Shown here piece by piece: positions 1 through 29,900 of a stretch of 64,000 nucleotides of DNA. A program made the position numbers and the translations under genes. The notes below the pieces were generated by a model. That model searched no databases, was not told the origin of the DNA, and saw only the letters and a program-made list of their open reading frames with translations. Position 1 is the stretch's first letter. The number at the start of each line of letters is the position of its first letter. The DNA is from Lytechinus pictus. Lineage: Eukaryota. Where the stretch lies: positions 8,186,001 through 8,250,000 of the forward strand of contig NC_087251.1 of the NCBI RefSeq assembly GCF_037042905.1. The letters run 5' to 3'.

Positions 1-673
1 ATTCATTAGGTGGGCTGGTGATGACAATGGGATTGTCCTTGCTTATGAGGACTGCTATTTTTCACTTCCCCTGCAGGACAGACAGTCAACAGCAATGACA
101 AGGATTATGGCAGTGCTACAAAAGGATTCAGTGACCTCCATTCCACGGCCCTGTTCACCATGTACTTTTTTACGTCTAGCCGTCTTCCAACAATCTTGTT
201 GTGAAACCCGATTTGTTTACATTGACTCGATTGGCATCGGCACTTGACAGGTGAATGAACTTTCTTAGATTTCTTGTGTGGGTGGGGAAATCTTTGAAAA
301 CTGAGAGTGAGACAGTCCCTGCAAACTAGGACTAGATCTATCCAAATTTTCTGACCAGCTCCTCTACTGAAATTTTAGAAAGTGTTATATAGATCTAGGC
401 CTTTTATTATTCCTTCAAGTTCAAAGACTGATTTCAATCAAAGTCACATTTTCAGTATTTTGTCTGATTTTTCTTTAGACTCTAGATCCCTAGTCTAGGG
501 TCTAGATTCTAACTTTTACAAGACCTAGATTCTAAGACCCTGTATCTGTTCCCTTCAATTTGATCATATTACTTTCATCCTGGAGTGCCCTTTTAATCAG
601 TCAATTTCATGTAAGAGTGGTGGGGTATTCTGCACTCGTTCCTTTGCTTTTATTTTTTTTAATCTTGACTTTG

Positions 674-1306
674 GGCGCTAATGCAGTTTCGCACCGGCTG
701 ACTACCTATACCAGCAGTACCGTACCAGCATACATCACCACCAGTAATTGTTCGCCAATGTCATGGCAAGGCTCTCAGTCACATTTCGAGGTCAATAATA
801 TGCCCACCGCTTTTCCAAATATCGTGTTTGGGATTGGCTGTATTTAGCTCTGATCTCAACGTTATCGTTCAACTTCTCAGACATCGCTTCGCTTGGCCTC
901 GCCGTAATTTTGATGGACTGAAGTTAGTGACCAAAAGATTTGCCTGGCCTGCGGCAGCTCACCCATTTGTATGCCGCCGCATTTTCACATGATTTTGGAT
1001 GCTAACTTTAGTCCAAATAAAAATTACGATGAAGCCAAGCGAAGCGATGTCTGTCCGAGAATCTGAACAACATCGAGATCGAACCCGAAATACATGTACA
1101 GCCTTTCCTGATCGTGGTATTTGGAAAAGTGGTGTGCATATGCATATTGACCGTCACCTTGTGATTCTGATTGAGTTGAGCCAGAGGCCATGAGATGAGG
1201 GACTTTAATTCTAACAATGACTAGGCTGGCATTTCCGAACAATTACTACTGGTGAGGTATGCTGGCAATTGGCCAGTGCAAATCTGGGTCAGTGGCTTCA
1301 GCGCCA
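674..1306. mobile_element. Degenerate non-autonomous TIR element; a second, left-truncated copy at 5197-5814
   Basis: Ends ggcgct.../...agcgcc. Subterminal ccagcatacatcaccaccagtaattgttcg is an imperfect inverted copy of cgaacaattactactggtgaggtatgctgg. Confidence 0.6.
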
Positions 1307-1812
1307 ATCTTTGTTACTCTTTGATTCTTGATCCAACTCCCTGTCCTGCACGACCCTAGCTTCACGTAGCTACGACCTACATAGACCCAGGCCAGGGTAG
1401 CCAGGAGGCTCCTTGAGAGTAAAAATAATTTACTATAAACGTGTGCTTACTTTCCATAAAGCCAGGGATTGCATCCTATTCATGTGCGTGTACCGCGAAA
1501 AAACTGAAACTTTCACCCCCAAGATATCTACTTTCCTTCTAAAAGATCTAGCCCTAAATCATGTAAATAGGATACAACTTCATTTCGGACATTTCTATAT
1601 TGATTTCATTTTTAAACAAGAATTCATTTAAAAAATGAGAAAAATATTATGAAAAGACGGGGAAAACTTGCGGGATGTTTACGACCTCATCTTGTTGATT
1701 TTTGTTCTTCGCCAACGTTACAGACGTCAGACGCATGTCCTCGATATGCGTCTGTAACGTTGGCGAAGAACAAAAAGAAACAAGATGGCGATGTAAGTTT
1801 TCACTGTCTTTT

Positions 1813-3412
1813 CCGCCCTTTTCTTGTTAGCACAAAATCTCCAAATCTACATCATCAATTATCTTCAGAATATCATCAGATATGGGGACTTATCATGTGA
1901 TGTGTATACCGGTAAAACAAGTTCAAGGTCAAAAGGTCATCATGACGTCATCTAGACGCCATTTTGTAAAATCACATTATCAATCATATCTTCATTATCA
2001 ATTTTAAAAAATTAACAATATTTACATCGCATTAACTTCAGGTCAAGGGTCAACTGTCCATGTCATCAAAGGTCATGTAAAGGTCACGACGTGCGCGTAC
2101 GCGCGCGTCAAAATTTTAAAATGCTCAAAATCACTTTTTGACCAAAGTAGAGTACGAATCAGGTCATTTTAAGCATTTCAAAAATTTGCGCGCGCGCACG
2201 GTTACGCTCGCATTCTCGCGCGTAACGGCACTATACAACATAGGATCGGCATCTTTTTAAATATCAATGCATTGATAATATAATTCTGAGTAATTTGATA
2301 CCTTGACCAACCTTCTACGACAAGTAATAACGGAATTAGCCTCCATCAAATTTTACAGCCCGCACGCACGCGCGCACTAACCATAGACAATATATGTGCA
2401 AAAACATGCCTATACAAAACTCATTATAGCTCTTCAGGTAGTCTGTTGACCCCCAATTTTTTTTTCATATTTGAATAGAGTATGGATGGGAGATATGATT
2501 TCATGTCACATTTGACCCGAAATTTTATCATGACGTCATCAAAATGGCGTCGGAACTCAAAATTCCCATTTTACTACTTATGACGTCATCATAATTATGC
2601 AAATTTGACTCTAACTCCATAAATATTGGTCAATTTTCGCTCAGTTTTTTATATATTGTAGCTGAGGACTCACTCTATCTAATGAGTTGGCATTTTCACA
2701 ATTTAAGGAACGGATTATCCCTGAAAATGTTGATTTATAGGGGTATGTCATTTTCGCTCATTTTGTGTGCAATCTCTATGGGAAATGACTTTTTCTCCAA
2801 ACTGGATTTTACATTCCTCTATTTCGCGAGCCATATCTCCATTTCTTTTTTTCGGTTTTCTCTGAGCTTGGAGTATGTTGTAGCTGAGATTGTAAGCTAT
2901 TGCAAGTGTGGTCTCCATTTTCCGATCAGATGCCGGGATCATGCCCGTATTTCACTTGCAAAATTGGATTTGAGATCCTCTTGTTTTGCTTATGTGTAAG
3001 TCTATGGGAAGTGTGTAGCTCAATGGGTAAGGCATGAGACTTGCGTCCTTCGGGTCCAGGGTTCGAGCCCAGGGGGCCGGGGTGAACAGGAGATTTTTTC
3101 TTCTTTTCAACATTTCACAAATGGTCCTTTATGACCATTACAATGTATATCAAATAAAACATTGGACAATAAAAGAGATAAAAATCCCTTTTAATGTACA
3201 ATGTTCCTGTACAATATGTGTATGACCTACACTTTTTCACACAACTTTTTCATTTCCCTCTTTTTCAAGAGTATTCAACACGTTCTTTTCTAAGAGAAGT
3301 TCAGTTTTCATCATGATGATCATATTGATCTCACTACATGCTGATTGTCTTCCTGATCATGAAATCAGAGACAGATCACCTAATTCGTCCTCATGACGAA
3401 TTAAAATTCTAG
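1813..3412 (+). mobile_element. Helitron/Helentron-like non-autonomous element with an embedded tRNA-like segment; duplicate at ~6321-7920; a solo 3' end at ~26920-26962
   Basis: 3' end has a 9-bp-stem hairpin (taattcgtc-ctcat-gacgaatta, 3381-3403) followed by CTAG|T at 3409-3413, the classic Helitron terminus. Interior is rich in aaggtca. The 5' boundary is approximate. Confidence 0.6.
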
Positions 3413-3794
3413 TTTTTATTTATTTTTGGTGCGTTTCAGGCCAAAACAGAATAATGATCTTTATTTTGGTATAGTGAGCGATTGTATTACCGACCGGCCT
3501 TGTATTATCGAACGCGTGCATCATACCCATCAGAAAATAATTTCATAAGCTCAAAATTTTGCGACATCCTTCCAAAGAGAACTTGAATAGAAAGATGATG
3601 AAAAATGGTCAAAAACACATTTTCAAAGTCTTAATATTCTAAAAATAATAAAATATGGTCAAAATAGCTCATCAGTGATTTTGTAGTTTTCTCAACTTTT
3701 CCCATAGAATCACACGTTCGGTAATACGATACCTTTTTCAAGTGACCAAAATATTTCACATGCGAAGAGGGGTCCGATTGGAAGCTTATATTGT

Positions 3795-4603
3795 AACAAG
3801 TGGAATGCCTCTGGCCGTCTCACCTGCATCACGCGATTCAATAGAGCAGCAGTGCTGATTTTGAAAACTACTATAACTCGCACAAGACGTTCAGTGATAC
3901 TTGGTTACTCTTATTTCCACGTTTTATGAACTAGACCAATACACTTATAGAGATATGATGGCAATTCAACAAATACCCCCAACGTGGCCAAAGTTCTTTG
4001 ACCTTACATGACCTTTGACCTTGATCATGTGACCTGAAACTCGCACAGGATGTTCAGTGATACTTGATTACTATTATGTCCAAGTTTTATGAACTAGACC
4101 AACACACTTTCAAATTTATGGCTGTAATTCAACAAATACCCCCAATTCGGCCAAAGTTCATTGACCCTAAATTACCTTTGACCTTGGTCATGTGATGTGA
4201 AACTCAAGCAGGATGTTCAGTGATACTTGATTAACCTTATGTATAAGTTTCATGAACTAGGTCCATATATTTTCTAAGTTATGATGACATTTCAAAAACT
4301 TAACCTTAGGTTAAGATTTTGATGTTGATTCCCCCAACATGGTCTAAGTTCATTGACCCTAAATGACCTTTGACCTTGGTCATGTGACATGAAACTCAGG
4401 CAGGATGTTCAGTAATACTTGATTAACCTTATGGCCAAGTTTCATGAACTAGGTCCATATACTTTCTAAGTTATGCTGTCATTTCAAAAACTTAACCTCA
4501 GGTTAAGATTTGGTGTTGACGCCGCCGTCGCCGTCGCCGCCGCCGCCGCCGTCGGAAAAGCGGCGCCTATAGTCTCACTCTGCTATGCAGGTGAGACAAA
4601 AAA
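3795..4603 (-). mobile_element. HINE/DINE-1/pearl-type non-autonomous Helentron, family A copy 1 (one unit shorter)
   Basis: Subterminal inverted repeats gtctcacctgcat / atgcaggtgagac, a (GCC)n microsatellite near one end, internal ~160-bp tandem units (tgacctttgacc...gaactag), A/T-run ends. Confidence 0.8.
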
Positions 4604-7600
4604 GGAAAACGATTTCGGCAAAATTTTTACATATTTATATTTTGTAGGTAATTGTGTATTTATGTTAAAAGTTTGGTGAATTTCATGAGAATAATGTATT
4701 TGATATGATTGAATTCATGAAAATTGTTCGGTAATATGATCCACTACCACCATACAGTTGCAGTTCTTTTAATTATATATAAAAGACAAAATTCGATGAG
4801 CCCGCCGTCGGGGGGATTTTGCATTGTCTGAATTTTTACCATCTAATGGTGGCTGCACGATAGCGAGCCGTCTGTGTACGAGGAGAAATAAAAAAAATGT
4901 AAAAAAACTCCTCAAAACAAATGGCTGCCAGGGGCCCGTTTCTCAACACCGTCATAAGTCTAACTTCTTGACTAAATCGGAGATAGTGAGCTACTTATCC
5001 GCTAACCGTTTCACAAAGCCCTCTTTACCAAGATCGGGTAAAACAACCTCATTAAATATTTATGACACCTCCGAACCTGTCATAATTTCTTTCTTAATGA
5101 CGTATGGCATCACGTGGGTAGACTATGACATGCAAAAGTGCCTAGAAATTTTGCAATTATAATCTTACGTAATCAATCATAGAGGTTGAAATTACATCGC
5201 ACCGGCTGACTACCTATACCAGCAGTACCGTACCAGCATACATCACCACCAGTAATTGTTCGCCAATGTCATGGCAAGGCTCTCAGTCACATTTCGAGGT
5301 CAATAATATGCCCACCGCTTTTCCAAATATCGTGTTTGGGATTGGCTGTATTTAGCTCTGATCTCAACGTTATCGTTCAACTTCTCAGACATCGCTTCGC
5401 TTGGCCTCGCCGTAATTTTGATGGACTGAAGTTAGTGACCAAAAGATTTGCCTGGCCTGCGGCAGCTCACCCATTTGTATGCCGCCGCATTTTCACATGA
5501 TTTTGGATGCTAGCTTTAGTCCAAATAAAAATTACGATGAAGCCAAGCGAAGCGATGTCTGTCCGAGAATCTGAACAACATCGAGATCGAACCCGAAATA
5601 CATGTACAGCCTTTCCTGATCGTGGTATTTGGAAAAGTGGTGTGCATATGCATATTGACCGTCACCTTGTGATTCTGATTGAGTTGAGCCAGAGGCCATG
5701 AGATGAGGGACTTTAATTCTAACAATGACTAGGCTGGCATTTCCGAACAATTACTACTGGTGAGGTATGCTGGCAATTGGCCAGTGCAAATCTGGGTCAG
5801 TGGCTTCAGCGCCAATCTTTGTTACTCTTTGATTCTTGATCCAACTCCCTGTCCTGCACGACCCTAGCTTCACGTAGCTACGACCTATATAGACCCAGGC
5901 CAGGGTAGCCAGGAGGCTCCTTGAGAGTAAAAATAATTTACTATAAACGTGTGCTTACTTTCCATAAAGCCAGGGATTGCATCCTATTCATGTGCGTGTA
6001 CCGCGAAAAAACTGAAACTTTCACCCCCAAGATATCTACTTTCCTCCTAAAAGATCTAGCCCTAAATCATGTAAATAGGATACAACTTCATTTCGGACAT
6101 TTCTATATTGATTTCATTTTTAAACAAGAATTCATTTAAAAAATGAGAAAAATATTATGAAAAGACGGGGAAAACTTGCGGGATGTTTACGACCTCATCT
6201 TGTTGATTTTTGTTCTTCGCCAACGTTACAGACGTCAGACGCATGTCCTCGATATGCGTCTGTAACGTTGGCGAAGAACAAAAAGAAACAAGATGGCGAT
6301 GTAAGTTTTCACTGTCTTTTCCGCCCTTTTCTTGTTAGCACAAAATCTCCAAATCTACATCATCAATTATCTTCAGAATATCATCAGATATGGGGACTTA
6401 TCATGTGATGTGTATACCGGTAAAACAAGTTCAAGGTCAAAAGGTCATCATGACGTCATCTAGACGCCATTTTGTAAAATCACATTATCAATCATATCTT
6501 CATTATCAATTTTAAAAAATTAACAATATTTACATCGCATTAACTTCAGGTCAAGGGTCAACTGTCCATGTCATCAAAGGTCATGTAAAGGTCACGACGT
6601 GCGCGTACGCGCGCGTCAAAATTTTAAAATGCTCAAAATCACTTTTTGACCAAAGTAGAGTACGAATCAGGTCATTTTAAGCATTTCAAAAATTTGCGCG
6701 CGCGCACGGTTACGCTCGCATTCTCGCGCGTAACGGCACTATACAACATAGGATCGGCATCTTTTTAAATATCAATGCATTGATAATATAATTCTGAGTA
6801 ATTTGATACCTTGACCAACCTTCTACGACAAGTAATAACGGAATTAGCCTCCATCAAATTTTACAGCCCGCACGCACGCGCGCACTAACCATAGACAATA
6901 TATGTGCAAAAACATGCCTATACAAAACTCATTATAGCTCTTCAGGTAGTCTGTTGACCCCCAATTTTTTTTTCATATTTGAATAGAGTATGGATGGGAG
7001 ATATGATTTCATGTCACATTTGACCCGAAATTTTATCATGACGTCATCAAAATGGCGTCGGAACTCAAAATTCCCATTTTACTACTTATGACGTCATCAT
7101 AATTATGCAAATTTGACTCTAACTCCATAAATATTGGTCAATTTTCGCTCAGTTTTTTATATATTGTAGCTGAGGACTCACTCTATCTAATGAGTTGGCA
7201 TTTTCACAATTTAAGGAACGGATTATCCCTGAAAATGTTGATTTATAGGGGTATGTCATTTTCGCTCATTTTGTGTGCAATCTCTATGGGAAATGACTTT
7301 TTCTCCAAACTGGATTTTACATTCCTCTATTTCGCGAGCCATATCTCCATTTCTTTTTTTCGGTTTTCTCTGAGCTTGGAGTATGTTGTAGCTGAGATTG
7401 TAAGCTATTGCAAGTGTGGTCTCCATTTTCCGATCAGATGCCGGGATCATGCCCGTATTTCACTTGCAAAATTGGATTTGAGATCCTCTTGTTTTGCTTA
7501 TGTGTAAGTCTATGGGAAGTGTGTAGCTCAATGGGTAAGGCATGAGACTTGCGTCCTTCGGGTCCAGGGTTCGAGCCCAGGGGGCCGGGGTGAACAGGAG

Positions 7601-8302
7601 ATTTTTTCTTCTTTTCAACATTTCACAAATGGTCCTTTATGACCATTACAATGTATATCAAATAAAACATTGGACAATAAAAGAGATAAAAATCCCTTTT
7701 AATGTACAATGTTCCTGTACAATATGTGTATGACCTACACTTTTTCACACAACTTTTTCATTTCCCTCTTTTTCAAGAGTATTCAACACGTTCTTTTCTA
7801 AGAGAAGTTCAGTTTTCATCATGATGATCATATTGATCTCACTACATGCTGATTGTCTTCCTGATCATGAAATCAGAGACAGATCACCTAATTCGTCCTC
7901 ATGACGAATTAAAATTCTAGTTTTTATTTATTTTTGGTGCGTTTCAGGCCAAAACAGAATAATGATCTTTATTTTGGTATAGTGAGCGATTGTATTACCG
8001 ACCGGCCTTGTATTATCGAACGCGTGCATCATACCCATCAGAAAATAATTTCATAAGCTCAAAATTTTGCGACATCCTTCCAAAGAGAACTTGAATAGAA
8101 AGATGATGAAAAATGGTCAAAAACACATTTTCAAAGTCTTAATATTCTAAAAATAATAAAATATGGTCAAAATAGCTCATCAGTGATTTTGTAGTTTTCT
8201 CAACTTTTCCCATAGAATCACACGTTCGGTAATACGATACCTTTTTCAAGTGACCAAAATATTTCACATGCGAAGAGGGGTCCGATTGGAAGCTTATATT
8301 GT

Positions 8303-9269
8303 AACAAGTGGAATGCCTCTGGCCGTCTCACCTGCATCACGCGATTCAATAGAGCAGCAGTGCTGATTTTGAAAACTACTATAACTCGCACAAGACGTTC
8401 AGTGATACTTGGTTACTCTTATTTCCACGTTTTATGAACTAGACCAATACACTTATAGAGATATGATGGCAATTCAACAAATACCCCCAACGTGGCCAAA
8501 GTTCTTTGACCTTACATGACCTTTGACCTTGATCATGTGACCTGAAACTCGCACAGGATGTTCAGTGATACTTGATTACTATTATGTCCAAGTTTTATGA
8601 ACTAGACCAACACACTTTCAAATTTATGGCTGTAATTCAACAAATACCCCAATTTGGCCAAAGTTCATTGACCCTAAATGACCTTTGACCTTGATCATGT
8701 GACCTGAAACTTGCACAGGATGTTCAGTAATACTTGATTACTATTATGTCCAAGTTTCATGAATCAGATCCATAAACTTTCAAAGTTATGATGGTAATTC
8801 AACAGATACCCCCAATTCGGCCAAAGTTCATTGACCCTAAATTACCTTTGACCTTGGTCATGTGATGTGAAACTCAAGCAGGATGTTCAGTGATACTTGA
8901 TTAACCTTATGTATAAGTTTCATGAACTAGGTCCATATATTTTCTAAGTTATGATGACATTTCAAAAACTTAACCTTAGGTTAAGATTTTGATGTTGATT
9001 CCCCCAACATGGTCTAAGTTCATTGACCCTAAATGACCTTTGACCTTGGTCATGTGACATGAAACTCAGGCAGGATGTTCAGTAATACTTGATTAACCTT
9101 ATGGCCAAGTTTCATGAACTAGGTCCATATACTTTCTAAGTTATGCTGTCATTTCAAAAACTTAACCTCAGGTTAAGATTTGGTGTTGACGCCGCCGTCG
9201 CCGTCGCCGCCGCCGCCGTCGGAAAAGCGGCGCCTATAGTCTCACTCTGCTATGCAGGTGAGACAAAAA
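8303..9269 (-). mobile_element. HINE-type element, family A copy 2
   Basis: Same structure as 3795-4603, plus one extra 162-bp unit. Confidence 0.8.
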
Positions 9270-9597
9270 GGAAAACGATTTCGGCAAAATTTTTACATAT
9301 TTATATTTTGTAGGTAATTGTGTATTTATGTTAAAAGTTTGGTGAATTTCATGAGAATAATGTATTTGATATGATTGAATTCATGAAAATTGTTCGGTAA
9401 TATGATCCACTACCACCATACAGTTGCAGTTCTTTTAATTATATATAAAAGACAAAATTCGATGAGCCCGCCGTCGGGGGGATTTTGCATTGTCTGAATT
9501 TTTACCATCTAATGGTGGCTGCACGATAGCGAGCCGTCTGTGTACGAGGAGAAATAAAAAAAATGTAAAAAAACTCCTCAAAACAAATGGCTGCCAG

Positions 9598-10667
9598 GGG
9601 CCCGTTTCTCAACACCGTCATAAGTCTAACTTCTTGACTAAATCGGAGATAGTGAGCTACTTATCCGCTAACCGTTTCACAAAGCCCTCTTTACCAAGAT
9701 CGGGTAAAACAACCTCATTAAATATTTATGACACCTCCGAACCTGTCATAATTTCTTTCTTAATGACGTATGGCATCACGTGGGTAGACTATGACATGCA
9801 AAAGTGCCTAGAAATTTTGCAATTATAATCTTACGTAATCAATCATAGAGGTTGAAATTACATCACAAAACAAGTGGGTTAATGCATTCAATGATAATTG
9901 TAATACAATGAAACTATAAAAACTGTTGATAAGACGCCACAAAACCATTCATTTTGAAATAGTAGAATGATTTAATCGATAAAGATTCTACCACGTCAGG
10001 CCATCCATAACTGAACTCGTATTTGTTGTTTTCAGACCCCAGTTTCAGACAGTTGGATAAATTCTATCTCTAATTCATGCATATTACAATTTGTCAAATA
10101 TCGTATGTTTCGGTATCAATGATTAAAAATGTTTCATTGAACTACATTTTGATGACGTTTGGAATCGTAAAAGACCGTATAATTATCATCATTTTACAAA
10201 GAAAACCATTATGGTTTACTTTTGTAAACTATCAATATAGGATATCCCGGGGATACCCATCTCAACGTCCACAAGTGATTTTTTAGTCATGAAATGAATG
10301 ATTCATAATTTAATTTTCTCTGTAATTGAATGCTCCATTCTTCATGGTCTAACTCTATGCATAATTCACCTGTGCTATTATTTTGAAAATATTTTTTCCC
10401 CAATTTATCACAATATTTGCAATTTTGTCATAATTTTTCTTCTTGAAAATTAATAATTAGGCCTAGGCCTAGGCCCTATGCTATTTTGACTTTTGTGACT
10501 AAGGCTGTCTAAGGCTACGTCTCGTCTGCTCTTTTCACCGATAGTATCATCGATATCAAGGTATTCTAGTTAGGAAGCCTTTCGAGAAACAGGTTTAGTA
10601 AGATTGGAACTAACTCCGTGGTTGGTGGATAAAGATTCTAACTTGCCATGTGTTGAGAAACGGGCCC
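9598..10667. mobile_element. PIF/Harbinger-like MITE; truncated duplicate at 4932-5198
   Basis: TIRs gggcccgtttctcaacac / gtgttgagaaacgggccc; 3-bp CAG TSD at 9595-9597 and 10668-10670. Confidence 0.85.
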
Positions 10668-10768
10668 CAGCCAGTCAGGGCCATGAGCTCCGCCGCGCCG
10701 GCGCGGCTTGGCCTGGCTGCCCTGAGCTCCCTGGCCCAGGCCGGCAAGGCTGAGCTGAGTTAACAAAC

Positions 10769-10978
10769 CTGCACTGCTTCTCGGAGACGATAACAAACAT
10801 CTTCTGCTAAAATTGCTGCTGTTTCCTCAGACAGTCTGTCATGCCCTGCAGACTCTGCCATGGTCTTGATTGATTCTTTAGAAAAGATCGCATACTTTTT
10901 CTCATCAGTAGCTTTCGGTTTTTCCTCTTTGATTTGTTGAGGTTTTGCACAGGATGCGTTTGAGCTTGTCTCCCCCAT
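10769..10978 (-). CDS. TAF6L: TAF6-like RNA polymerase II p300/CBP-associated factor (SAGA/STAGA histone-fold subunit), first coding exon; the gene continues left of the window
   Basis: 70 codons, MGETSS...KKYAIFSKESIKTMAESAGHDRLSEETAAILAEDVCYRLREAVQ, closely resembling the recalled human TAF6L N-terminus (ESVRLMAES...AALLAEDVCYRLREATQ). Ends at a phase-0 donor CAG/GTTTGT. A pyrimidine tract plus AG lies 2 nt before the ATG. No convincing next exon in 1-10768. Confidence 0.9.
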
Positions 10979-11004
10979 TGCTGCAATAAAGACAAAGTGC
11001 AAAC

Positions 11005-12642
11005 CAACGAACGTAGAGGGCAGCAACACACGACAGTGTTGCTTTTAGGAAGGTCCACTCCGCTCAGATTTTGTGACCACTTAAGCCCCGCCCCTCACTC
11101 AGCGCACTTTTTTGGTAGATTGTAGAGTTGATTTTTTTTCGTTTGTTCAATTTTATTATTTTTTATGGATACTGAAAACTCCACGAAATAATGTAAATAT
11201 TCTTTAATAACTGTTTATTTATTTTTTGAAAAAAGTAAGGCAAAACGTAATCATGATTCTTGTAGTTTGCACATCAATAAACATACATAGTCTGATGACA
11301 TTGAATTACCTCTTTTCTGCTTAATTTCGCTGCCCCTACAAAGCTACACCAGCCAACACGAGAGCCAATACCTTGATCTTCTGGCATAGCCGCGCCGGAA
11401 CTTCCGGGACACATCGGTGCGTGTACTGCGCAAATGCAATGCTGGCCGCACTAGCAGGACTGGCAGGATATCTAGACGCTACTCGACTTAGTCAGATATA
11501 GACTTGAACGATATGGACTTAATCTGTCATTGATGTGGCACTAACTGCCAGTTGCAACGAGAAATGATCAAGGTTAGGATCCGAATTTTCCCCTACAGTG
11601 TAGATCGGAGTCTGAAAGTATAAAAGAATTAATCGCGATATCCACGAATCCGACCCAACTTTTTTGCAAGACATCAGGCAGAGCTCGAATACGGCCACCA
11701 GTCAAGCTCAAGCCCAGGTAAGTCCTAGTCTAAAGTTTGACCTAATTAACAGACCAAAATTATCTGGTCCAGTATCGAGCCATATATGTTTTGACGGGCC
11801 TTGACTTGTGAACTATCAAGAGACGAAGGTATATGTCACAGCTACTTTTTTCATTCCATAATTTCATCCTAATTTGTGCAATTAGCATGCACAAATACCA
11901 GCCAACCGTATCCTACCTTCGCATCGACCGGCCGGCCGGGGCGCTGGCGCGGTCAGCCATGGCGCTTGCACTCAAGCGATGGCACTGTTGCTGGATTGTG
12001 TAGGCGCATTAATGTGGTGCAGCGAAACATAGATGAAGAATGTTCAACCTCACGTGTATTTGTTATCATGTTGATATGCGAAAGTCATGAAATTGTTTTC
12101 ACCACTACGTAATATTTTAGGAAAAATACAGAAATAGATATTGAATACTTTTATGCTTGATATTTGCTGTAAAAGTCTATCAAGTAAAAATGTTGAAAAT
12201 TAGGAAATAAAAAAAAATCAACTCTACAATTTACTAAAAAAGTGCGCTGAGTGAGGGGCGGAGCTTAATAGCGGTCACAAAATGAGCTTGACTAAATCGG
12301 GGTGAAATTAGCAGATTGGTTTATTTGATGGCATAATTAATCCTGTTTACTGAAGAATTAAAAAAACAAAAGACAATAATCTGGTAATATTTTTAATTTT
12401 GAAATGTGGTACATTTTTTGTCAATTGTTTTTATATTTTTCTATTTCTATTATTGGGATTTAGTCTTGTCATAATCTGTTATTTTACCTCTATTTTGTTA
12501 TTAATCTCTGAATGTATCGCGTCGGTTCATGGTTTCGTTGGCATGCCTACCAAATTGTGCGCGCACTTCATTTGTATGCGCGTATCGAGTGGACCTTCCT
12601 AAAAGCAACACTGTCGTGTGTTGCTGCCCTCTACGTTCGTTG
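11005..12642. mobile_element. Non-autonomous P-like (or hAT) DNA transposon between TAF6L and MRPL33
   Basis: Perfect 56-bp TIRs (11005-11060 / 12587-12642, CAACGAACGTAGAGGGCAGCAACACACG...). 8-bp TSD GTGCAAAC at 10997-11004 and 12643-12650. Extra degenerate inner inverted repeat ~11062-11140 vs ~12204-12287. Confidence 0.88.
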
Positions 12643-13777
12643 GTGCAAACATCGAGAGAGCGGAGGGCCAGGAGCTAGCTCGGAGGTACCGGTAGGCGAT
12701 ACTGACATAGCGCCATGATATGGTATGTCCCAAAATCGTCATTAAAAGCCAATGATTTGAATGAAATATTTATATCAGCTTTGGTTTTCATCAGAATAAT
12801 CTTACAGATCTAGTAGAGATCTAGATCTCGACATTTTTTTCACACAAAAATAAGTAGCATTGTCATTGATTTATACTGGTCCCACATATTGCATTTCAGT
12901 GCTGGAAAGTGGAAATGAGAATCAAATGAAGAGAGAAGCTAAATTTTGTCTATGTTCCGGTACTAAAGTCTAAAGTACTTACTTACTTTAGTTACTTACC
13001 TAGAATTTAGAAAAGTTATGGATACTTATGATGGAGTCTGGCATCTTCTGAACTCAATCTTAGGACTCGGTAATCTGTATTCAGCTCCAAATTCTTTCTC
13101 TTTATTGCCTTATTGGAATGATTTTAGATCTTTTGCCATCATGCATCCATTTTCGGCAGAACTAACGTCGTTAATGCGATCACTCAGTAAAAACATGACT
13201 GAGCAGATGACTTATTTTATGAGGGTGTATGTGTGTGCTTTTTTTTTTACTACAGTTACACCATGTTTTGCATTTTGCCAGGCAAGATTATGAAGATATG
13301 GATTTTCTTGCACAAATGCAAAGTTTGATTGCACACTTCTCATCCATGTTTCTTGAAAAATTAAAGGCCTATCAAGTTTCACAATGATCCCATTCACACT
13401 TTTCAGTTGTTTGCAGCCTGGTTGTTTGAATTTCAATATAGAATGTTAATGCTATTTATAGATTTACATGGATAATGGATTTAATTTTTTACCATTGCGT
13501 ATGGGCTATGATTCTAGAATTCTGTTCTTTCATAAAGTATCTGTGGCAATGGTACATATATTATCAAACATTAAAGCAGCCTTTTTCGAATGGTTATTGC
13601 CTTCTGTTAGGTGGATGATATTGATGATCTTATTTGAGTGCTGAATATGAAATAAAATTTACAGAACTACATGTATTTCACCTTCAATTGTTCATTATAG
13701 TGAAGTGTGAATTGAGCTGAGTATATTTGAAAACACAACTTGCAGATCCGTAGTGCAGATTCTCAGTGTCATCAATC

Positions 13778-15541
13778 ATGTTTCTTTCATTTTCTCTATG
13801 TAAGTATACGTTGTTTATTTATATTCATACATAATATATAAGATATTGTCATAATATATGGAATATTGTAATATATGGAGTTATGTTTGACATCCTCATT
13901 CCTCACATAAACTGTTAACAGAAATTACATGTGTGCTGGGGGGGGGGGGTAGTTATTTAGGTACATGTATGTTCCTATACTGATTACAGTAATATATTCA
14001 ATGATCAAAACCGTCTCTTCCCTCCACGTGTGCAAGTTTTGTTTATTTTGTATCATATGGAGATGGAAGATTGTATATTCAGATGATGTAATTGAGGTCA
14101 ATAGTATTACCTCACCTCATCTCATAACATGATGATGATGATGTACTTACCCTAGGGATATTATCAGCATTGAGAATTTGTGTAACTTCACAAGAATTTT
14201 CAAGTGATTATTGAATTTTTATGAAATTTGGATCATTGTGGAGTAGTTCCATTTTATGAAAATATATGAAATTTGATAAGTCCAAGCATTTAGGGTAAAT
14301 GAGAAAGGACATGGTTGATGCCTTTCTGATTGAAAGTTGTGCAAAATTTAGGCCTATTAAACTATTCAAACATGATTGTTTAATTTTTATGTTATTTCTC
14401 TCTTCTTTCTTTGTTACAGTTGCAAAAAGCAAGTAAGTATTGGCAAAATCAATCACTATTCATTCAAACATTGCATCTTGAGCACTGTGCAGAGTGAATT
14501 TGGTGCATTATAAATCATTTACATTCATGACTATTTCATTTTACATCTAATCTAGTTGAATTACCGGTATAGAAAGATTTGATGTTATATTTCTTAATAT
14601 AATTCAGAATACACGACAGCGAGTCAAATGACTGTAAATAATAAAATTCATTTTAGGCCCCTTCTACAGGGAGTTAAAAATGTCTTGAATGCATGATTGA
14701 ACTGAAGATGTACTTCATATTAGACTTGTGAGATTGTGTGATCAAAGCATATTTTTAAAGCTTAGGAGAGCAGGTAATTGTAAGTTATATTGCACAAATA
14801 TGAAGAAAAAAGTACCAGTATTATAGCACAAGTGAATCAACATTCATAATGATATATTTTTTGCCTGTCATTTTGAACCACAAAAATCTGTTTCCTTGGG
14901 AGAAATTAAAATTATAAGAGGTTTGTTTCTACTTTATAAGACATATTTTTGTATAATATGGTTCGACTTGGGCCAATATTTCATTTATTGAATGTGGACT
15001 TTATATGCAATAGTACCTATATTCTCTAATATTTGTCAAATTAAGTAGTGATATATACATGTATTTTACTTGCTAATTGAATATAAACTACCGGTAAATA
15101 AAATTGTGTTTAAGAATAATTGAAGACATGAAGTACAATGTGTAATACACTTCCCACTTTCTTTCCATTTCTAGACGGGTAATGGTGATGTTGAAGAGTG
15201 CAGCTGGAACAGGAACTTGTAAAGTGATGATCAGGAACAGATTAAAACCCAAAATGATGTTGGTCAAGTTTGATCCAAAAGGCAAGTTGATTAAGTCCTG
15301 GAGGTCATTAAGATGCTCAATATTCATTTTATGTATGTATTTTCATGATTTATTCACTTGTTTATATATACAAGATATTAAGAGAAAGTTTGCTGAGCTA
15401 GTGCCATGAGCTTCTTTTGGCAGTATATTATCTTGTATTATTTAGCAAATGAAGTAAAATTATTTCTGTAACTTTTTTATTCTGCCTGCAGTGAATCGAC
15501 ATGTATTATTCATAGAGGACAGAAAGATCAGGTCAATGTGA
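13778..15541 (+). CDS. MRPL33: Mitochondrial ribosomal protein bL33m, complete CDS; exons 13778-13799, 14420-14432, 15175-15281, 15492-15541
   Basis: The 192-nt spliced CDS gives MFLSFSLFAKSKRVMVMLKSAAGTGTCKVMIRNRLKPKMMLVKFDPKVNRHVLFIEDRKIRSM*, collinear with human MRPL33 (MFLSAVFFAKSK...AGTG...RNRL...DP.V...VLF.E..KIRS). Phases agree. Intron 3 uses a GC donor. Confidence 0.93.
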
Positions 15542-20957: not shown

Positions 20958-23900
20958 TTACATATCTAGCTTTAGTAGGTAAGGTGCATGGTAGGAACCC
21001 AGATAGAGAGCTTTTCCTGTATCAAGAACCTCACTGACTGAAGGTACAATCTTTCCTGTAGGATCATGAAGACTCTGGACGATCTCACCTTCCTGGTTCA
21101 GTTCTATGATCAGACCATACTGAGGCATCAGATTCACTATTTGAGTAGGATCAATGAGCTGTAAAGAAAAAAAAGTTGTACAATGTTTATTAAAGCCAAT
21201 CTCTAGCTTGCTTAATCTAAGCACATTTCAATAGCTTGGCTTTCATTATCAGATAAAATCAAAGATTATGCATGTGTACTAAAACTTCGTAAGCATGGAA
21301 TGGGAAGAAAAATTCAGGATTCAATCTTGTATTGGTAAAGCTTTCTGGTATAAATGAACTAAATTTATTAGATAAGGATTTGAAGGGCTTATATAAAATA
21401 ATAATACACAAAAAGAAAGGATGTTAAATTATTTCATTAGTAAGGGAACCAATATAACCATGGATATCACTATAAAATCACCTACTTTTGCTATAAGACG
21501 CCTAATCCAAGGATACGGGGCAAGTAGGTCTGCCGTTAGAAGCCCTCTTCTGCTGCTAGCAAATGCCAGACCCACCCAGTAGCCTCCATTACGACTAGGT
21601 CTGATATTATCAGGCATCCCTGGAAGATTATCAATGAAGACTTCTGTTGATCCTGTCATAGGTCCAGTCAAGTGATATCTACATCATCAAAGATAATAGA
21701 AAATGTCAGTGTAAGATTTAATACTCCCAGTACAACCAAATTGTCGCATTAGCTGATGACATGGCAGCTACCACAACTCTTTCAAGGAATCAATTTCTGT
21801 GTCTGGTACCCATTTACCCTACCTGGGTAAGGTAAATCGATGTCCTGATGAAATTAATTCATATAGCAATGGTGTCTGAACCCTATATACCTGGTGATTT
21901 GTAGTCCAAAGACTTGTTCACTAGACCACAATGCCTCTACATGAAGGAATCTGATGTTGCTCACAATTATTCTCAAAATACTTATCTGAAAAACACCCTC
22001 ATTTATGACATGATAAGTTTGATAAAACACCCTTTACAATGTAGCTCCACAAGTAATACCATACTTACTTTAATATTCTGTATCTTGATGTTTCTGCAAT
22101 GAGGAGAAAGTCTTTCTTGGGTGATAGTTGAAGTCCATTGGGGAAGTGTAATTTATCCAGTGATAGGTCACTCATACGATTCACCGGATTGAACCATAGC
22201 AGCCTAGTGGACCAAAACAAACATTTGATAGGTTAGTCACAAATATATTGAAACATGAAAATATATAACAAAATTTTACTTGCCTATGAATCATGCTGTC
22301 CAATTCGTTGAAAATTTAATCATGTGGCAATTTGTTTGATGTCTCAAATTACTTGTTCTCTATAGCCACAGATTTGCTTCAGAAAGATGGCTATATCACC
22401 TTTGAAAGATTAGTTTGTCCAAATACCTAACTAACAGTAATTATTCAGTTATTAGATATTAAACAAATATATCAGGCTTTGAGAAAGTATAGTGGAATTA
22501 TTTGTCCGAGGTTGGTCTGGCAATTACTATTTTTCCCCGAGGGGCGAAGCCCCGAAGGAAATATAGTAGTTTTGCCAGTCCAAACGAGGATGAATAATTC
22601 CCACTATGCTTTCGAATGAAACTCCTGATATATTTGTTTTATATCCTACTTTTAATAATTTATAACCAAAATCTATGCGCTGAGCAAAAATGCAAAGTCA
22701 TGTTACTTGCGTTGAATTACCTACTTTTCTCCGAGCCACCGTGCTCAGCGGAATGCAGATTAGCGTCTGCGCTGACGCATCGCGCTGGACTTGCCCGGGA
22801 GAGAGAGCGCGCAAGCCGGTGCGCCGAGATATCCAGTTTTGTGAAATAATGACGTCAGACCTCGATATATCCAAAAATATATTGAGGTCTGAAGTCATGC
22901 AACATCATAGTTGAAATATATTTGGTCACATGATGCTATTTGAACCAATCACTATACAGGATTCAATCTATGTAGGATATAAACATGTATATATCTTGTA
23001 TATACATGTATATACCTTTTTATCTTGAATATTGTGGTTATTATTTCAAATGTTGAATTATTATTCATACATTGTACGCGCTATGGTACTTTTTATTTTT
23101 AGCGCCTCTAAGTATCCATTATTATTATCATATACACATCATAATGACAATTCGGGTGGGTGACTCATAAAGCTGTTCATAAGATACGAATGACTTTACG
23201 CACGACTGGTGATCCTTTCTTGGGCTATGTGATATAGCCCTATGTAATTGATTTATGACTTAAGAACATGAAACACCCACCTGAATGGGTTTCAAAAATA
23301 CATCATCATTAATGGTGACCTTCTAACTCACCTACCACAACCTTTACTTTCCAATGCAAGTATCCCATAGTCCTTACGATACTTGCGATAACTAGAATCA
23401 GTGAAGAGGAAATCTCCATTATCCAGCTTTACAAAATCATTTGCAAACCTCATCTGATGTCCTTTGTAACTTCTCTGAGTTGAAACCAATTCAACAGGAA
23501 GGGATTCTGCATAAAAGTTAAAAAAGACAATAGTATGATATAGTCAATGGAAAATCCAGGGGTTACTTCCCTGCGCAAAACAAACAAGGCTACGCTGGAG
23601 TTTTTAAAATGGGAGTTTTTCAATGTATACTTTAATCTGTTGTACCAAAGACACTACAAGGGGAAGACCGAACACTTTGGCAAATTTTTTAAAAGCTCAA
23701 TTTCGCTCAAGGGGAAGGGAGCCTGACAGCGTTGAGTAAGTAAACTGATGCAAATCGGCAAAGGTTTGTGTACAAGACATATGGGGTGGCTAAGGGTCAG
23801 TTTTTATTATTACTGTTACAGAGTGAATGAAAGCATACATTTGGGTATAGAGCTTATATGGACCAACTTTTGATTTCAGATGGGGATCCAACCAAACCAG

Positions 23901-26900
23901 GTTCATCTTCACTAGTTGCCATGGCAACAGATTAATTTTCAAAAATAATTTCTATTCTCCTGTACATAGTAAATAAACATGATATTAATGACTAAATTAA
24001 TCAATTTCAAGCTTTCATTTTAATAGAAATAAAATTTTCCAATATTTAAGGTTATCAAAATAGTTGCAATCGGTCCATTGCCATGGTAACAGCTTATTTT
24101 CCACCCAGAAAAAAAAATTTTTTTTTTTTTTTTTTTCTTTCATTTTTTCAAAATGTAGAATATGATTTTTCTTTCATCTCTCCTCTACTTTAGGGTGTTT
24201 AACACAAAAGTACTTGTTGCTAAATGCATAAATACCATATTATACTGTTGCTATGGCAACAAAATAACACCTACTGGGCAAAACAAAAATATGGTGGAAA
24301 ATACAACAAAAATGAAACATCTACAGGTTTGGCCCACTCATTTAATTTTGAAAACGAATTACAGTAAGAGTATTGTTCATTAGACTGTCACACTGATCAT
24401 GCCTTGGTAACACAAGAATTTAATAATAAAATGTTGCAAACATCCAGTTGCCATGATAACAGCTAATTATCCCAAAGAAAAGTACAAATTTTGATAAAAA
24501 CATGTAGAATCATATTTTTCTTTCATTTCCCCTATATTTTTAGGTGTAAAAGATAGTTATGCTTGTTGCTAAATGTATAAATACCAAGGCTTAGGCTTTG
24601 CTATGACAACCAGATAACATGGTAAACAAGATAATGGTGGAAAAAACCATAACAAATTACCTAAAATACATACATATGCGTAAGGTTTGACCCAGTCATT
24701 TCATTTTGAAAACAAATTACAGTAAGTGTTATGCATGATTTCATTATAATTATAAATATTAATGTTGCATTGGTAATGCTAGAATTCAATGATTAATAAT
24801 GATGTTGCAAATAACCCATTGTCATGGTAAAGGCTTATTTTTACCAGAAAAGTGCAAATTTGTATTGCCATGGCAACCAAATAAGACTCGTTTTGTATGT
24901 GTTTAGGTAGTGGAGGATCTAGGATTGACCAAGGGGGGGGGGGGTGATGCACACAAAGCAACCAACCTTTTATTAAATATGTGTCAAGCCAAAACAAATT
25001 AAAACACTTTTTAACACTGCCCCCTTTCTTACATCGATTCACCCAGTAATGACTTATAAAAATACACATATTGCTAAAATGTTTTTTTTATATGAAAGAG
25101 CCCCACCCCGCCCCCTTTGGAGAAAAATATCACATTTTTATCCAGGCGCCCCCTCCCCATGGATCTGCTATGTGTAGAGATGTGAGTAGACATGTGAGAC
25201 TACTAAATAACTAGAAATATGCGCTAAATGGGGGGGGGGGGCAAAACAATAAAGTGAAATTTGTTAGGGACCGCCCCACTCTCAGCTGCTATGATCGATA
25301 CATGCACTATTTTCTCCTCTCAACTATCGGCTGTGTATTTTTTTGTATAGGAGCAATATAAAAGACTACCCATGGGGGAGGCAAAGGCAGGTCCCTGGGA
25401 ACAGTTTTTTTTTACTGGGGTGCTGATGTAAATTTGAAAAAAAAAAAAAAAAGGGGGGATAAGTACAAAATGGAGATCAAATCGGTCCTGAGAAATTTGG
25501 AAAAGCAAAAAAAAAAAAAGGGTTTCCTTCAAAAATGGAAATCAAATTGGTCCCAAGAAATTTGAAAAGCAAAAGAAAAAGAAAAGGGGGAGGGGGGGGT
25601 TTAACTATAAAATGGAGGTCATTTTGGTTACTTTTTTTTTTCACATCTGCTGCCTATGGAGAATAGTACAGCACCCCCTAATGCCATGGGCAAAGGGTTG
25701 AGGAGGCGATGCCAGATCGTTGGCTTTAAACGGGAAGTTCACCCTGACAAAAAGGTTATTGTAAACATAGCAGAAAAAATATTGCATAAGGTTTGAGAAA
25801 AATCCATCAAAGAATGAAAAATTATTAGAATTTTAATTGTGAATTTTCTACATATCGTATGGTAAAAAATCAATGAAATGTCATTTTCTCAGATACTTAA
25901 AATGGCTTTTACTGAACCTTCAATATATCAATAGACAAATTATTTCACACCCATTCCTAAACAGAAAACCAAAATAAGTCATTAGCAACCATTAAAATAT
26001 CAAAATTTATGCATTTTATATTACATAACATATGGGGCAGCTGCTCGTTTATGACGTCACAAATTCAAAACTTGAAATTCTAATAACTTTCTTAATCTTT
26101 AACAGATTTTTCTCAAAACCGTCACCAATATTTTCTCTGCTATTTTTACCACAAAGTTTTCTTCAGAGTGAACTTCCCCTGTAATGTATTGTGCCACCAT
26201 TAAAATTGATTAAATTTTGAAAATCTGGCAACCCCACTTCTAAAATCTGAAGAAAAAAAAAATCAAATTCAAAACTGAATATATCTTTAACATTTCTAGG
26301 AAATAAGAGGTGAAATTTATCCCCCTGTGCTGCCCCTTTACCCTCTTTTGTATGCCTTGTACACAGGGTTTGGCCGACTACTCAACGCTGTAGGGCGCCC
26401 TTCCCCATGTGCGAAATTCAGCATTTCATTACATGCTCTATTGAGTGTGCGATCTTCCCTTGTAGTGTTTTTGGTTATACTTATACTAGATATATCAGAC
26501 CTCCTAATATTTACATGTACTTCCTCAAATCATCTCTTGTATTTTCTTTGCAAATCACAATACCTCTTTATCAGTCAAATTGTAGAGCTCAGAAGATGAT
26601 GCAACTGGAACTCCTCATTAATATTGGAATTAATAAATAACTCCAATTAATAATTCTGAAATACTTAAAAGTACATCAAATCTTTAAGTCAAACTCACAT
26701 GACTTAAAACGATACAAAGGTTGAGGGTATCAGAAGACTCTTCCCTTTACTTTCATGTATTTTATTTTTCATCTTTTCTTAAGAGTTCAACAATGTTCAA
26801 CTTTTTCGCAAGTCTCCGTATATGTATGTCTATCTGACTGTCTATTTATCTTTCAATCTTATATCAACTCATTTGTTTAAATAATTATGTCTGTTTATAA

Positions 26901-29900
26901 ACTAGTATTTATCTTTCTACGACAGACCACCTAATTCGTCCGCATGACGAATTAAAATCTAGTTCTAAATTTCATTTCAATGGTAATTAACTTACTTCCT
27001 TTATGATCAATTTCAAAAAGCCCATAGTAAGCATCGATCATGTAGAGCTTATCACCAATAAACTTGATCCCCAATGGACGGCCACATTTAATCTCGTCTT
27101 CTCTGGTGCCTAGACAGAACAGAAAAATGGCTTCAGGTTCAAGAACAATCAATCAATCAAAATTAATGGAGGGAAAAACAGGCATCTAAAAAATATGTAA
27201 TTATTCATGAAGTTACTGAAATAAGACTCAACTCTTGCAGCAGTGGCATACCATATACTAGTTGGGAAGATCACAAGTTATAAAAGCAGACTGCAATTCT
27301 TTAATTACATGGACAAAAGCCTGGATTACCAGTAAGAGTAGGACAGGTACATATCCATAACAGTAAGGTTCTATGTTCATGAAGCATATATACCTAGACC
27401 TCAATTTGGTTTAGATCTAGCAGGGTAATGTGGTCTAGTAGTTAGGGCATTGGACTCACAATTGAAAGGTTGTCTATTTTCTTTCATGGCCCACTACTTT
27501 GGAATTCTTTGCCGTTTAATTTGAAAACATCTTGTTCATTTAATATTTTCAAACGTAACTTCAGAAACTTTATATTTGATAATTAAACCTGTTTGTAAAT
27601 ATTTATATATATATATAATCTAAATCTTACCATTTGTGAATCTATGCCTTTGTATTGTCTTCTAATTGTTTTGTTTTTTACTTTTGATATTGTCAATAAT
27701 TATTTCTTTTTAAAGTAAGTTGGGGTGGCCTTTTTATAAGGATATTCTTTTCCTTTTTGGCTGCTTCCCTCTCAATGCTTATTTATGTCTTTGATGTTAT
27801 GTAAACTTTGTTCCTATGTATTTTACCACATTTGTATTCATTTTTATGCAGAGAGAAAAATAAACTTGAATTGAAATTGAATTGAGTTGTGAGTTCAAGT
27901 CCCCACTATGCCACTGCCTCCACTTTGATAAAGACCCTCACTACATGTATGCCTGATTAACTGAGACGTAAAATGTTTCCAATCTAATTGGTTACTTGTA
28001 CACAGCTTGGAGTTATAAAAGCATAAAGCTGTCCTGCCGAGTTCCTATGGGAGTTAATGAAACAGAAACCTATAAAACGATATATATCTTTAAATTTCTT
28101 GTTTTGAGCTACCAAGCAGCATAGCAAATGCAAAACAATACTGCAATTTTTCCCTCCTCAAAAAGATTGATAAACATAACAAGTGGAATGCCTCTGGCCG
28201 TCTCACCTGCATCACGCGATTCAATATAGCAGCAGTGCTGATTTTGAAAACTACTATAACTCGCACAAGATGTTCAGTGATACTTGGTTACTCTTATTTC
28301 CACGTTTTATGAACTAGACCAATACACTTATAGAGATATGATGGCAATTCAACAAATACCCCCAACGTGGCCAAAGTTCTTTGACCTTACATGACCTTTG
28401 ACCTTGATCATGTGACCTGAAACTCGCACAGGATGTTCAGTGATACTTGATTACTCTTATGTCCAAGTTTTATGAACTAGACCAACACACTTTCAAATTT
28501 ATGGCTGTAATTCAACAAATACCCCAATTTGGCCAAAGTTCATTGACCCTAAATGACCTTTGACCTTGATCATGTGACCTGAAACTTGCACAGGATGTTC
28601 AGTAATACTTGATTACTATTATGTCCAAGTTTCATGAATCAGATCCATAAACTTTTAAAGTTATGATGGTAATTCAACAGATACCCCCAATTCGGCCAAA
28701 GTTCATTGACCCTAAATGACCTTTGACCTTGGTCATGTGACGTGAAACTCATGCAAGATGTTCAGTGATACTTGATTAACCTTATGTATAAGTTTCATGA
28801 ACTAGGTCCATATATTTTCTAAGTTATGATGACATTTCAAAAACTTAACCTTAGGTTAAGATTTTGATGTTGATTCCCCCAACATGGTCTAAGTTCATTG
28901 ACCCTAAATGACCTTTGACCTTGGTCATGTGACATGAAACTCAGGCAGGATGTTCAGTAATACTTGATTAACCTTATGGCCAAGTTTCATGAACTAGGTC
29001 CATATACTTTCTAAGTTATGCTGTCATTTCAAAAACTTAACCTCAGGTTAAGATTTGGTGTTGACGCCGCCGCCGCCGTCGCTGTCGGAAAAGCGGCGCC
29101 TATAGTCTCACTCTGCTATGCAGGTGAGACAAAAAGGTGAGTTGGCTGGTTCAACTTTACTATCCAAGGCCAAAATAGTCCAAACTTGAAACAGTTGTGC
29201 AAATAATCTGTTGAACCAACAAGCCAACTCTTAGTCTAAATGTATCAGTATTACCATAATTAGATAATTACTAATTATCAAACTGTTGCAAACTGAATAG
29301 GGAACCAAGAACTATTTGTATGTAAGTGTATATATGTATTTTAGGTCATATGGTTGGGGTCTAGAGTTGATGCTGTTCAAAAAATTTCAATACAAACTGA
29401 ATAAACCATATCAGAGATAAATAATATAGTTTTGATATCAGTAAAATATTATAAAACAAATAAGGATGTACATCACTTGATCCTGAATAGAGCAACTTAC
29501 CACAAGGAGGAGTACCAAGCTGTGCAATAACTTTGATGTCTTTATCATTCTTAATCTCTACCACTTTACCATCATAGGTACCTGTGTAAATGCGACCTAC
29601 AAGAAAGAAAAAAAATCAAACTTTCACCCATTCTTTGTTCTTCTAAACCCCAACTTTCCATTTGGTTAGAATACCATTAATATTTGGCTAAATAGACAGC
29701 AATTGAAACAAAATGTCATTTACCAGCACATATTCATACCCCCTCCCTCCATCCATCCTCTCTATCTACCTCACTCTTACATTAACAAAAGCAAATGCCA
29801 GCACATTATTGCAACTACTTCCTTGATGACAATCTTTTTAAATGAATTCCAAGGCCCCATACTACCAGCAAGTATTGAAAAAGGAAATATTCCATGACAT

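Follow-up and report, generated by a model that had tools for sequence, protein, structure and literature searches.

P and hAT elements both make target site duplications (TSDs) of 8 bp, and Ds insertions have been found to be spliced out of maize transcripts. For P elements, the passages of PMC7776569 on target choice and cleavage describe insertions that favour promoters and a transposase that cleaves 17 bp inside its terminal inverted repeat (TIR), with a 17-nt stagger, and from a cut so placed we would expect remnants of the element ends at donor sites, a matter on which that passage is silent. For hAT elements of the Hermes type, the part of PMC10368747 that deals with the TSD gives the 8-bp pattern nTnnnnAn, the TSD consensus sequences of P, hobo, and Hermes are set out in a table of PMC2577343, and the five Ds footprints tabulated in PMC1978519 keep no element sequence. 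THAP9 homologues are stated, in the relevant lines of PMC10983969, to occur in sea urchins.

The present study analyzes an element inserted between the head-to-head genes TAF6L and MRPL33 in a 64-kb window, by which we mean the whole stretch of sea-urchin DNA under analysis. The element resembles non-autonomous P and P-like elements (Drosophila P, zebrafish THAP9-type, and the BuT5 MITE) in its perfect TIRs and its 8-bp TSD of GTnnnnAC type, as these are described in the pertinent sections of PMC7776569, PMC2577343, PMC3698922, and PMC10983969, and in its subterminal inverted repeats, its non-coding 0.5-2.8-kb size class, and its insertion beside promoters. It differs from P, as far as those sections go, in having TIRs of 56 bp compared with 31 in P and 13 in zebrafish, a subterminal repeat that is about 110 bp long, imperfect, and very asymmetric compared with 11 bp in P, ends that read CAA/TTG, and putative excision scars in which each end retains about 25-27 nt, compared with 17. 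With non-autonomous hAT elements (Ds, and derivatives of hobo and Hermes) it shares an 8-bp TSD of the form nTnnnnAn that is near the hobo/Hermes consensus, and dissimilar subterminal regions; in the same sources, however, Hermes TIRs are 17 bp and imperfect, and Ds excision leaves no element sequence, in contrast to the end-to-end remnants of the present family. As with spliced Ds in maize, the insert could be lost from RNA through splicing between a donor in or near the element and a latent host acceptor adjoining the TSD, but no such splice was among the joints listed here, and two opposed genes would both need rescue.

Methods

Of 23 candidate public runs, four (X21, X1, X12, and X16) were aligned to positions 10600-14500 of the window at 85% likeness. 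X21 consists of raw stranded RNA reads of organism A, about 6 in 100 of the run having been read. X1 comprises contigs of organism A that are not on record as RNA, splice joints within them indicating that they are. X12 holds DNA contigs and X16 probable RNA contigs of organism B. X1 was assigned to the species of the window because its records 7 and 8, intron pieces of 1037 and 494 bp, showed 0 differences from it, and organism B was taken as a relative because X12 and X16 differ from the window at 14 and 11 places, respectively, in the TAF6L piece.

Results

The element occupies positions 11005-12642 (1638 bp) between TAF6L and MRPL33, with an 8-bp TSD on both sides (Table 1). Its TIRs are complementary at 56 of 56 bases and end in CA...TG, so that the perfect 56-bp TIRs, the CA...TG termini, and the intact TSD described in an earlier reading of this DNA from its letters alone (the sequence-only reading) were confirmed, GTGCAAAC standing on both sides. 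An inverted-repeat search returned 58 bp, of which 56 belong to the TIR and 2 to the palindromic edge of the TSD; when positions 10000-14000 were Markov-shuffled 200 times, the longest perfect inverted repeat reached at most 15 bp, with a mean of 11.9, and the computed chance of a match between two 8-bp TSDs is about 1e-5. Internal to the TIRs lies another inverted repeat, the arms of which are 78-83% alike and are placed 1 bp from the left TIR as opposed to 299 bp from the right TIR, with weaker similarity of the left arm extending to about 11320. Each arm carries a GC box, oriented outward at both element ends, at 81-89 and 379-387 bp from those ends. The mirror-image upstream sequence that had been described for the two genes is thus exact for 58 bp, but beyond that it passes into an imperfect and asymmetric inner repeat, and the GC box claimed for both sides is present once per arm but in unequal positions. 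We read this symmetry as a side effect of the TIRs and not as an adopted regulatory design.

Table 1. Features of the insertion and of the two flanking genes, in window coordinates.
Feature	Positions	Strand	Remarks
TAF6L first coding exon (histone fold)	10768-10978	-	ATG at 10978, donor after 10768
TAF6L host leader between TSD and ATG	10979-10996	-	latent 3' splice site ending at 10981
Left TSD, GTGCAAAC	10997-11004	+	single copy in empty allele
Left TIR, 56 bp	11005-11060	+	inner 7-bp hairpin 11023-11042; partial CTCF-like match 11010-11023
Left subterminal inverted repeat	11062-11171	+	GC box 11086-11094
Probable internal non-coding exon of the family	11404-11717	+	ends at donor CAG/GTAAGT (11718)
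Right subterminal inverted repeat	12178-12287	-	GC box 12255-12263
Right TIR, 56 bp	12587-12642	-	
Right TSD, GTGCAAAC	12643-12650	+	
MRPL33 non-coding exon 1, 3' part	12651-12722	+	donor at 12723; on the opposite strand probably part of the TAF6L leader as well
MRPL33 exon 2	13701-13799	+	true ATG at 13778
MRPL33 further exons	14420-14432, 15175-15281, 15492-15541	+	with exon 2, an ORF of 63 residues

None of the 12 frames translated, six each from the element and from positions 49900-53201, matched any Pfam family at the cut-off, P-type and hAT-type transposase domains included; three sub-threshold matches in these frames were disregarded. There was no Rfam match inside the element, a single match outside it at E 0.1 being below the cut-off, and the left end folded as TAF6L leader RNA gave a z of -0.09, that is, no special structure. 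Given its TIRs and TSD, the empty site and multiple copies described below, and this want of coding capacity, the element belongs to the non-autonomous class II (cut-and-paste) transposons. A probable non-coding exon within it is delimited by X1 record 4 (11587-11717) and X16 record 19 (11404-11717), both of which stop at 11717, and X21 reads within 11648-11778 all share one orientation. The exon region contains only short ORFs, and paired ETS-like motifs are found at 11395-11407. These internal transcripts are not identical to the window and so derive from other copies or alleles of the element.

Related copies are abundant in organism B. Against a single-copy depth of about 43-45 in X12, bins over the TIRs reached 38599 and 23299 (877 and 530 times) and bins over the element interior 642-3158 (15-72 times single-copy depth), values which, since summed contig depth is no copy number, we take to mean that this interior is present in tens of copies and that related ends number hundreds or more. 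The sequence-only reading had proposed a search for further copies, and the DNA of organism B does hold the whole interior at many loci, with TIR ends at 530-880 times single-copy depth. X16 record 17, from the relative, spans the TIR and left subterminal repeat (11003-11146) with 5 differences, and X12 record 10 crosses the junction of inner repeat and right interior; as contigs of organism B cross the inner-repeat junctions, this repeat belongs to the subterminal structure of the family. The idea that it might be a separate nested MITE was set aside, these two contigs crossing both of its outer junctions and no TSD being evident. Loose ends at the element tips show other flanks, and three of the four readable ones fit nTnnnnAC (two are a consensus of mixed loci). 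Within the window there is a solo related end at 51784-51807, identical at 24 of 24 positions from TIR position 5, which begins CAT at 51780. A metagenome scan with a 17-nt TIR core yielded 74 loci, all of which matched at no more than 33 of 56 TIR positions, with blastn alignments of no more than 24 bp, and are chance matches. No published description of the element family or of the insertion was found among titles and the starts of abstracts, and the family may already have an entry in Repbase or Dfam.

The gene names proposed from the letters alone proved correct. The TAF6L exon matches Pfam TAF at E 8.8e-13, and its residues 1-70 are identical to named TAF6L proteins at 66 of 70 positions (P0001) and 69 of 70 positions (P0008) by tblastn. 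The longest MRPL33 exon (15175-15281), taken at 15176-15280, matches mitochondrial L33 in PDB at E 2.8e-4, a Pfam search of a 35-residue piece from it giving no match. Spliced contigs of X1 and X16 begin at 10768, which is the TAF6L donor, and in both runs the loose end behind 13799 runs on into the next MRPL33 exons. The TAF6L ATG and the left TIR are 26 nt apart, and 80 nt separate the right TIR from the donor at 12723, in agreement with the earlier spacings of 26 and about 80 nt. This donor is used: a joint from 12721 to 13700 (GT..AG, cut +1) occurs in four raw RNA reads of X21, in one orientation, and in two X1 contigs. The ATG/GTATGT donor that had been noticed upstream of MRPL33 is therefore genuine, but its ATG is not the MRPL33 start, exon 1 being non-coding and the coding sequence running from 13778; two ATGs in exon 1 open a 5-codon uORF and a start-stop uORF. 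On the other side, a latent acceptor at 10981, with a pyrimidine tract (11 of 15 Y) and CAG, ends 2 nt before the TAF6L ATG. As the normal TAF6L acceptor it was rejected for the empty allele, in which the contig of X1 record 1 reads straight through. A 4.5-kb near-tandem duplication adjoins the region.

The empty site that the sequence-only reading had predicted was found in the same species. X1 record 1 (2593 bp, depth 45.2) covers 10768-11004 and then jumps from 11004 to 12656, skipping 1651 bases, with 19 letters between the two sides of the joint, the first of which resemble the right flank in the window. The record carries a single TSD and no TIR remnant, and it departs from the window by three substitutions (10935, 10964, and 10974) and two small insertions, all of which mark it as a separate pre-insertion haplotype that never held the element. 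The last 118 letters of this record equal 19+75+24, the sides of the empty-site joint and of the MRPL33 splice joint, and by this arithmetic one contig would hold both the spliced TAF6L mRNA and the spliced MRPL33 leader; contigs carry neither strand nor start site, and one that spans two genes does not amount to a single transcript. Such a joint contig needs continuous coverage from the TAF6L ATG to the MRPL33 donor, a distance of 98 nt (window flanks) to about 120 nt, so the insertion site is transcribed leader, and we infer that the element landed within about 100-120 nt of transcribed leaders and not in an intergenic gap. The 5' leaders of TAF6L and MRPL33 probably overlap head to head, and the compact shared 5' region that the element had been said to split is recovered in this contig, which spans both gene leaders across the empty site. 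In the DNA of organism B, X12 record 9 follows TAF6L to 10987 and continues with 90 letters that were not aligned to the TIR, which suggests that the element is absent from the orthologous site there too.

A young, segregating insertion is supported by the expressed empty allele in the same species, and the earlier description of a young DNA transposon agrees with the intact TSD, the multi-copy family, and this empty site. The suggestion that the insertion is a segregating regulatory allele was borne out as to segregation, by way of the expressed empty allele, a regulatory role forming no part of what was borne out. The insertion allele itself is seen only in the assembly of the window, and among the joints, loose ends, and pieces listed for X21, X1, X12, and X16, none connects the element to either gene. 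X21 has no reads at 10935-10974 and hence is silent on the 5' end of TAF6L; in X1 only the empty-allele contig covers that interval, which, because contigs drop variants, is no proof of silencing.

Discussion

Patterns detected at this locus are probably best explained by a young non-autonomous insertion into head-to-head leaders that is segregating and is not an adopted control switch, an account that we hold, taken whole, with reasonable confidence. The element, 1.64 kb long and non-coding, would belong to a dispersed cut-and-paste family and would have been moved by transposase made elsewhere, and the recent insertion would have been into a GTnnnnAC site where the TAF6L and MRPL33 5' leaders meet, in a region of about 100-120 nt. 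Open promoter chromatin may have attracted the insertion, and its youth may be the reason why the allele still segregates. In the haplotype with the insertion, the leader of TAF6L would be broken 26 nt before the ATG, while MRPL33 would keep exon 1 and lose its normal upstream context. On the TAF6L strand the element contains 26 upstream ATGs, together with 5 hexamers of poly(A) type, and since read-through from the native TAF6L start would carry all of these, reduced TAF6L output appears most likely; judging from the sequence, this allele probably yields less normal TAF6L mRNA, unless splicing removes the insert or transcription begins anew in its left end. The locus shows, in nature, a young DNA transposon within the probably overlapping leaders of two housekeeping genes, and a single sea-urchin species of laboratory relevance has both alleles. 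It is suited to an allele-specific test of the tolerance of a compact bidirectional promoter for a split of 1.65 kb. It also carries a warning that the assembly shows a non-universal allele at the 5' end of TAF6L.

Co-option of the element as a promoter or insulator is unsupported, because the symmetry ends after 58 bp, the match to CTCF is incomplete, and transcription of both genes from the empty allele means that the element is not needed. A co-opted transposon promoter should be fixed and necessary for transcription, whereas X1 contains an expressed empty allele. The proposal of the sequence-only reading that the element supplies symmetric promoter or insulator sequence to both genes is likewise unsupported, given their transcription without it, the relative's orthologous contig, which appears to run on without the TIR, and a symmetry that is that of the TIR only. 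The possibility that the element interior is the native bidirectional promoter was rejected, as the empty allele expresses both genes and the interior is multi-copy. A more specific version, in which the TIRs form a convergent CTCF pair insulating TAF6L and MRPL33 from each other, strikes us as very improbable. In each TIR, and in convergent orientation, there is a match to 11 contiguous positions of a 14-position CTCF consensus rather than of a sea-urchin matrix, and promoter-near CTCF motifs are weakly enriched in echinoderms according to the pertinent lines of bioRxiv 10.64898/2026.10.19.760054. However, the first three positions of the consensus, the 5' CC among them, are missed, and the 64-kb window has 42 sites that fit as loosely, at no more than 3 mismatches, so that the CTCF-like motif previously noticed in the TIRs survives as a partial match (11 of 14) and not as the full core. 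Moreover, the same lines of that preprint place CTCF looping in vertebrates, sea-urchin CTCF has been suggested to be mitotic rather than interphase in the passage of PMC11457506 that cites Watanabe 2023, and the empty allele works without the element. Somewhat less remote, but still unlikely, is a self-neutralising or co-opted regulatory allele in which the element replaces what it displaces, the internal exon at 11404-11717 splicing to MRPL33 exon 2 and, for TAF6L, the insert being removed from minus-strand donors at 12706, 12487, and 11309 to the acceptor at 10981, or transcription starting at the left-end GC box. The coincidence of donor 11718 with contig ends in both species would be consistent with this, as would an internal-exon leader that keeps the MRPL33 ORF intact, its five upstream ORFs (3-20 codons) all closing inside the exon, an acceptor 2 nt before the TAF6L ATG, and GC boxes that face outward at both ends. 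In addition, the 5-nt insertion that marks the empty allele is missing from another X1 contig at the MRPL33 joint, of depth 20 by subtraction, and from both of two X21 reads at 12668; together these indicate that a window-like MRPL33 leader is expressed, origin from a carrier being only possible, as the second contig may represent another empty haplotype. Yet the joints listed for X21 (about 6 in 100 of which was read), X1, and X16 include none from 11717 to 13701 and none to 10981, and the internal transcripts differ from the window, at best by 2 differences in 131 bp. Furthermore, 21 X21 reads at 11492-11500 run the opposite way with at least 7 differences, a pattern to be expected of read-through from other copies, and neither gene needs the element for its transcription. 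We would give still less credence to a promoter-seeking P-like family built for tolerance, in which an internal promoter and a spliced non-coding exon would provide a replacement first exon on one side, the insert would be spliced out at the latent acceptor beside the TSD on the other, a lone segregating insertion would rewire both genes of an essential head-to-head pair, and the transposase would cut about 25-27 nt inside the ends as opposed to 17 nt in P. If the rescue reading were true, it would show how promoter-seeking elements persist beside essential genes. Finally, an assembly artefact in which a repeat was mis-joined at this site is hardly credible: among the reads and contigs listed none spans either junction, and the near-tandem duplication lies next door, but a mis-join would not yield an exact duplication of an 8-bp host site at both element tips.

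Within the preferred account of a young, segregating insertion, membership of the element in the P superfamily is somewhat favoured over hAT because end-to-end junctions of 60-66 bp resemble P-type excision scars. In six such junctions among those listed (five from X12 and one from X1), the left end contributes 25-27 nt (38 in one case) and the right end 23-27 nt (38 in one case), with 2-14 filler letters between them that differ in each, and the five from X12 have depths of 35.7-55.1, or about single copy. Their unique fillers fit independent repair events; an alternative would be internal deletion at the TIR's own hairpin (11023-11042). Classification as a non-autonomous hAT of the Ac/hobo/Hermes type, with the rest of the account unaltered, is a possibility that we regard as real if rather doubtful. 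The TSD agrees with the tabulated P pattern at 5 of 8 positions, with hobo at 6 of 8, with Hermes at 5 of 6, and with nTnnnnAn at 2 of 2, a comparison of motifs that gives no decision and would lean, if at all, slightly to hAT, and three of the four readable flanks of other copies fit nTnnnnAC. With the Drosophila P target motif, ATRGTCCGGACWAT, the TSD has these 5 of 8 positions in common, and the element ends in CA...TG with a different third base, i.e. CAA...TTG, and not the CAT...ATG that restores the P target motif in the corresponding part of PMC2577343. On the other hand, all six end-to-end junctions retain element ends, five of them near single-copy depth, whereas the tabulated Ds footprints keep none, and the related solo end at 51780 starts with CAT. 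Should the 60-66-bp junctions be excision scars, they would record the cut geometry of an uncharacterised marine P-like transposase.

Fused and solitary ends of the TIR family

In contigs of the same species (X1) and DNA contigs of a related species (X12), joints running from 11029-11042 to 12605-12620 bring TIR ends of the family together end-to-end over 60–66 bp (positions are those of the element at 11005-12642), with filler that is unique to each joint. These junctions are possibly excision scars in which about 25–27 nt of each end were left behind.

A lone end of the same TIR family lies inside intron 1 of a NEMF-like gene; it starts with CAT, is identical at 24 of 24 positions from TIR position 5, and had no partner at ≤2 mismatches in the 12-nt core. 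Just to its left is an exact direct repeat of 70 bp, both copies of which have GT-AAGT donor-like sites close by.

Features of the window outside the element
Feature	Position	Strand	Detail
Apparent near-tandem duplication, TAF6L intron 1	689-9867		about 4.5 kb, 97–98% identity, as assembled
High-copy repeat, near start of TAF6L intron 1	10600-10680		
GC-rich stretch	10660-10760		
TAF6L residue 2	10974	-	
MRPL33 leader	12715-13710	+	
APMAP/strictosidine-synthase-like exons (presumed)	20958-29615	-	
Further partial copy of the 4.5-kb duplication	28177-29137		includes 163-bp subrepeat
LINE reverse-transcriptase fragment	31177-32178	-	RVT_1, E 1.5e-15
NEMF-like gene, first exon	48626		
70-bp direct repeat	50463-50532, 51648-51717		spacing 1185 bp
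Solo TIR end	51780-51807		
NEMF-like gene, NFACT_N	54316-54738		

Neighboring genes

Residue 2 of TAF6L is Gly in the window and Ala in X1, in X12, in probable RNA contigs of the same related species (X16) and in both closest named proteins; the Gly is a variant carried on the insertion haplotype. The named proteins P0005 and P0008 are two versions of a single accession: the 653-aa XP_054759513.1 includes the histone-fold first exon, and the 578-aa XP_054759513.2 begins in exon 2. Intron 1 of TAF6L exceeds 10.7 kb and, besides its internal duplication, holds a separate high-copy repeat that reaches a depth of 11629 in X12, where single-copy depth is about 43–45 and summed depth does not equal copy number; many stranded RNA reads from the organism of X1 (run X21) fall on this repeat, with loose ends, and the GC-rich stretch comes after it.

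The exons that by eye resemble an APMAP/strictosidine-synthase-like gene gave no match when three pieces were searched against Pfam. Two uORFs, one of 5 codons and the other a start-stop, lie in the MRPL33 leader across the joint between exons 1 and 2, and, as read from the sequence, the MRPL33 intron after 15281 appears to begin with GC.
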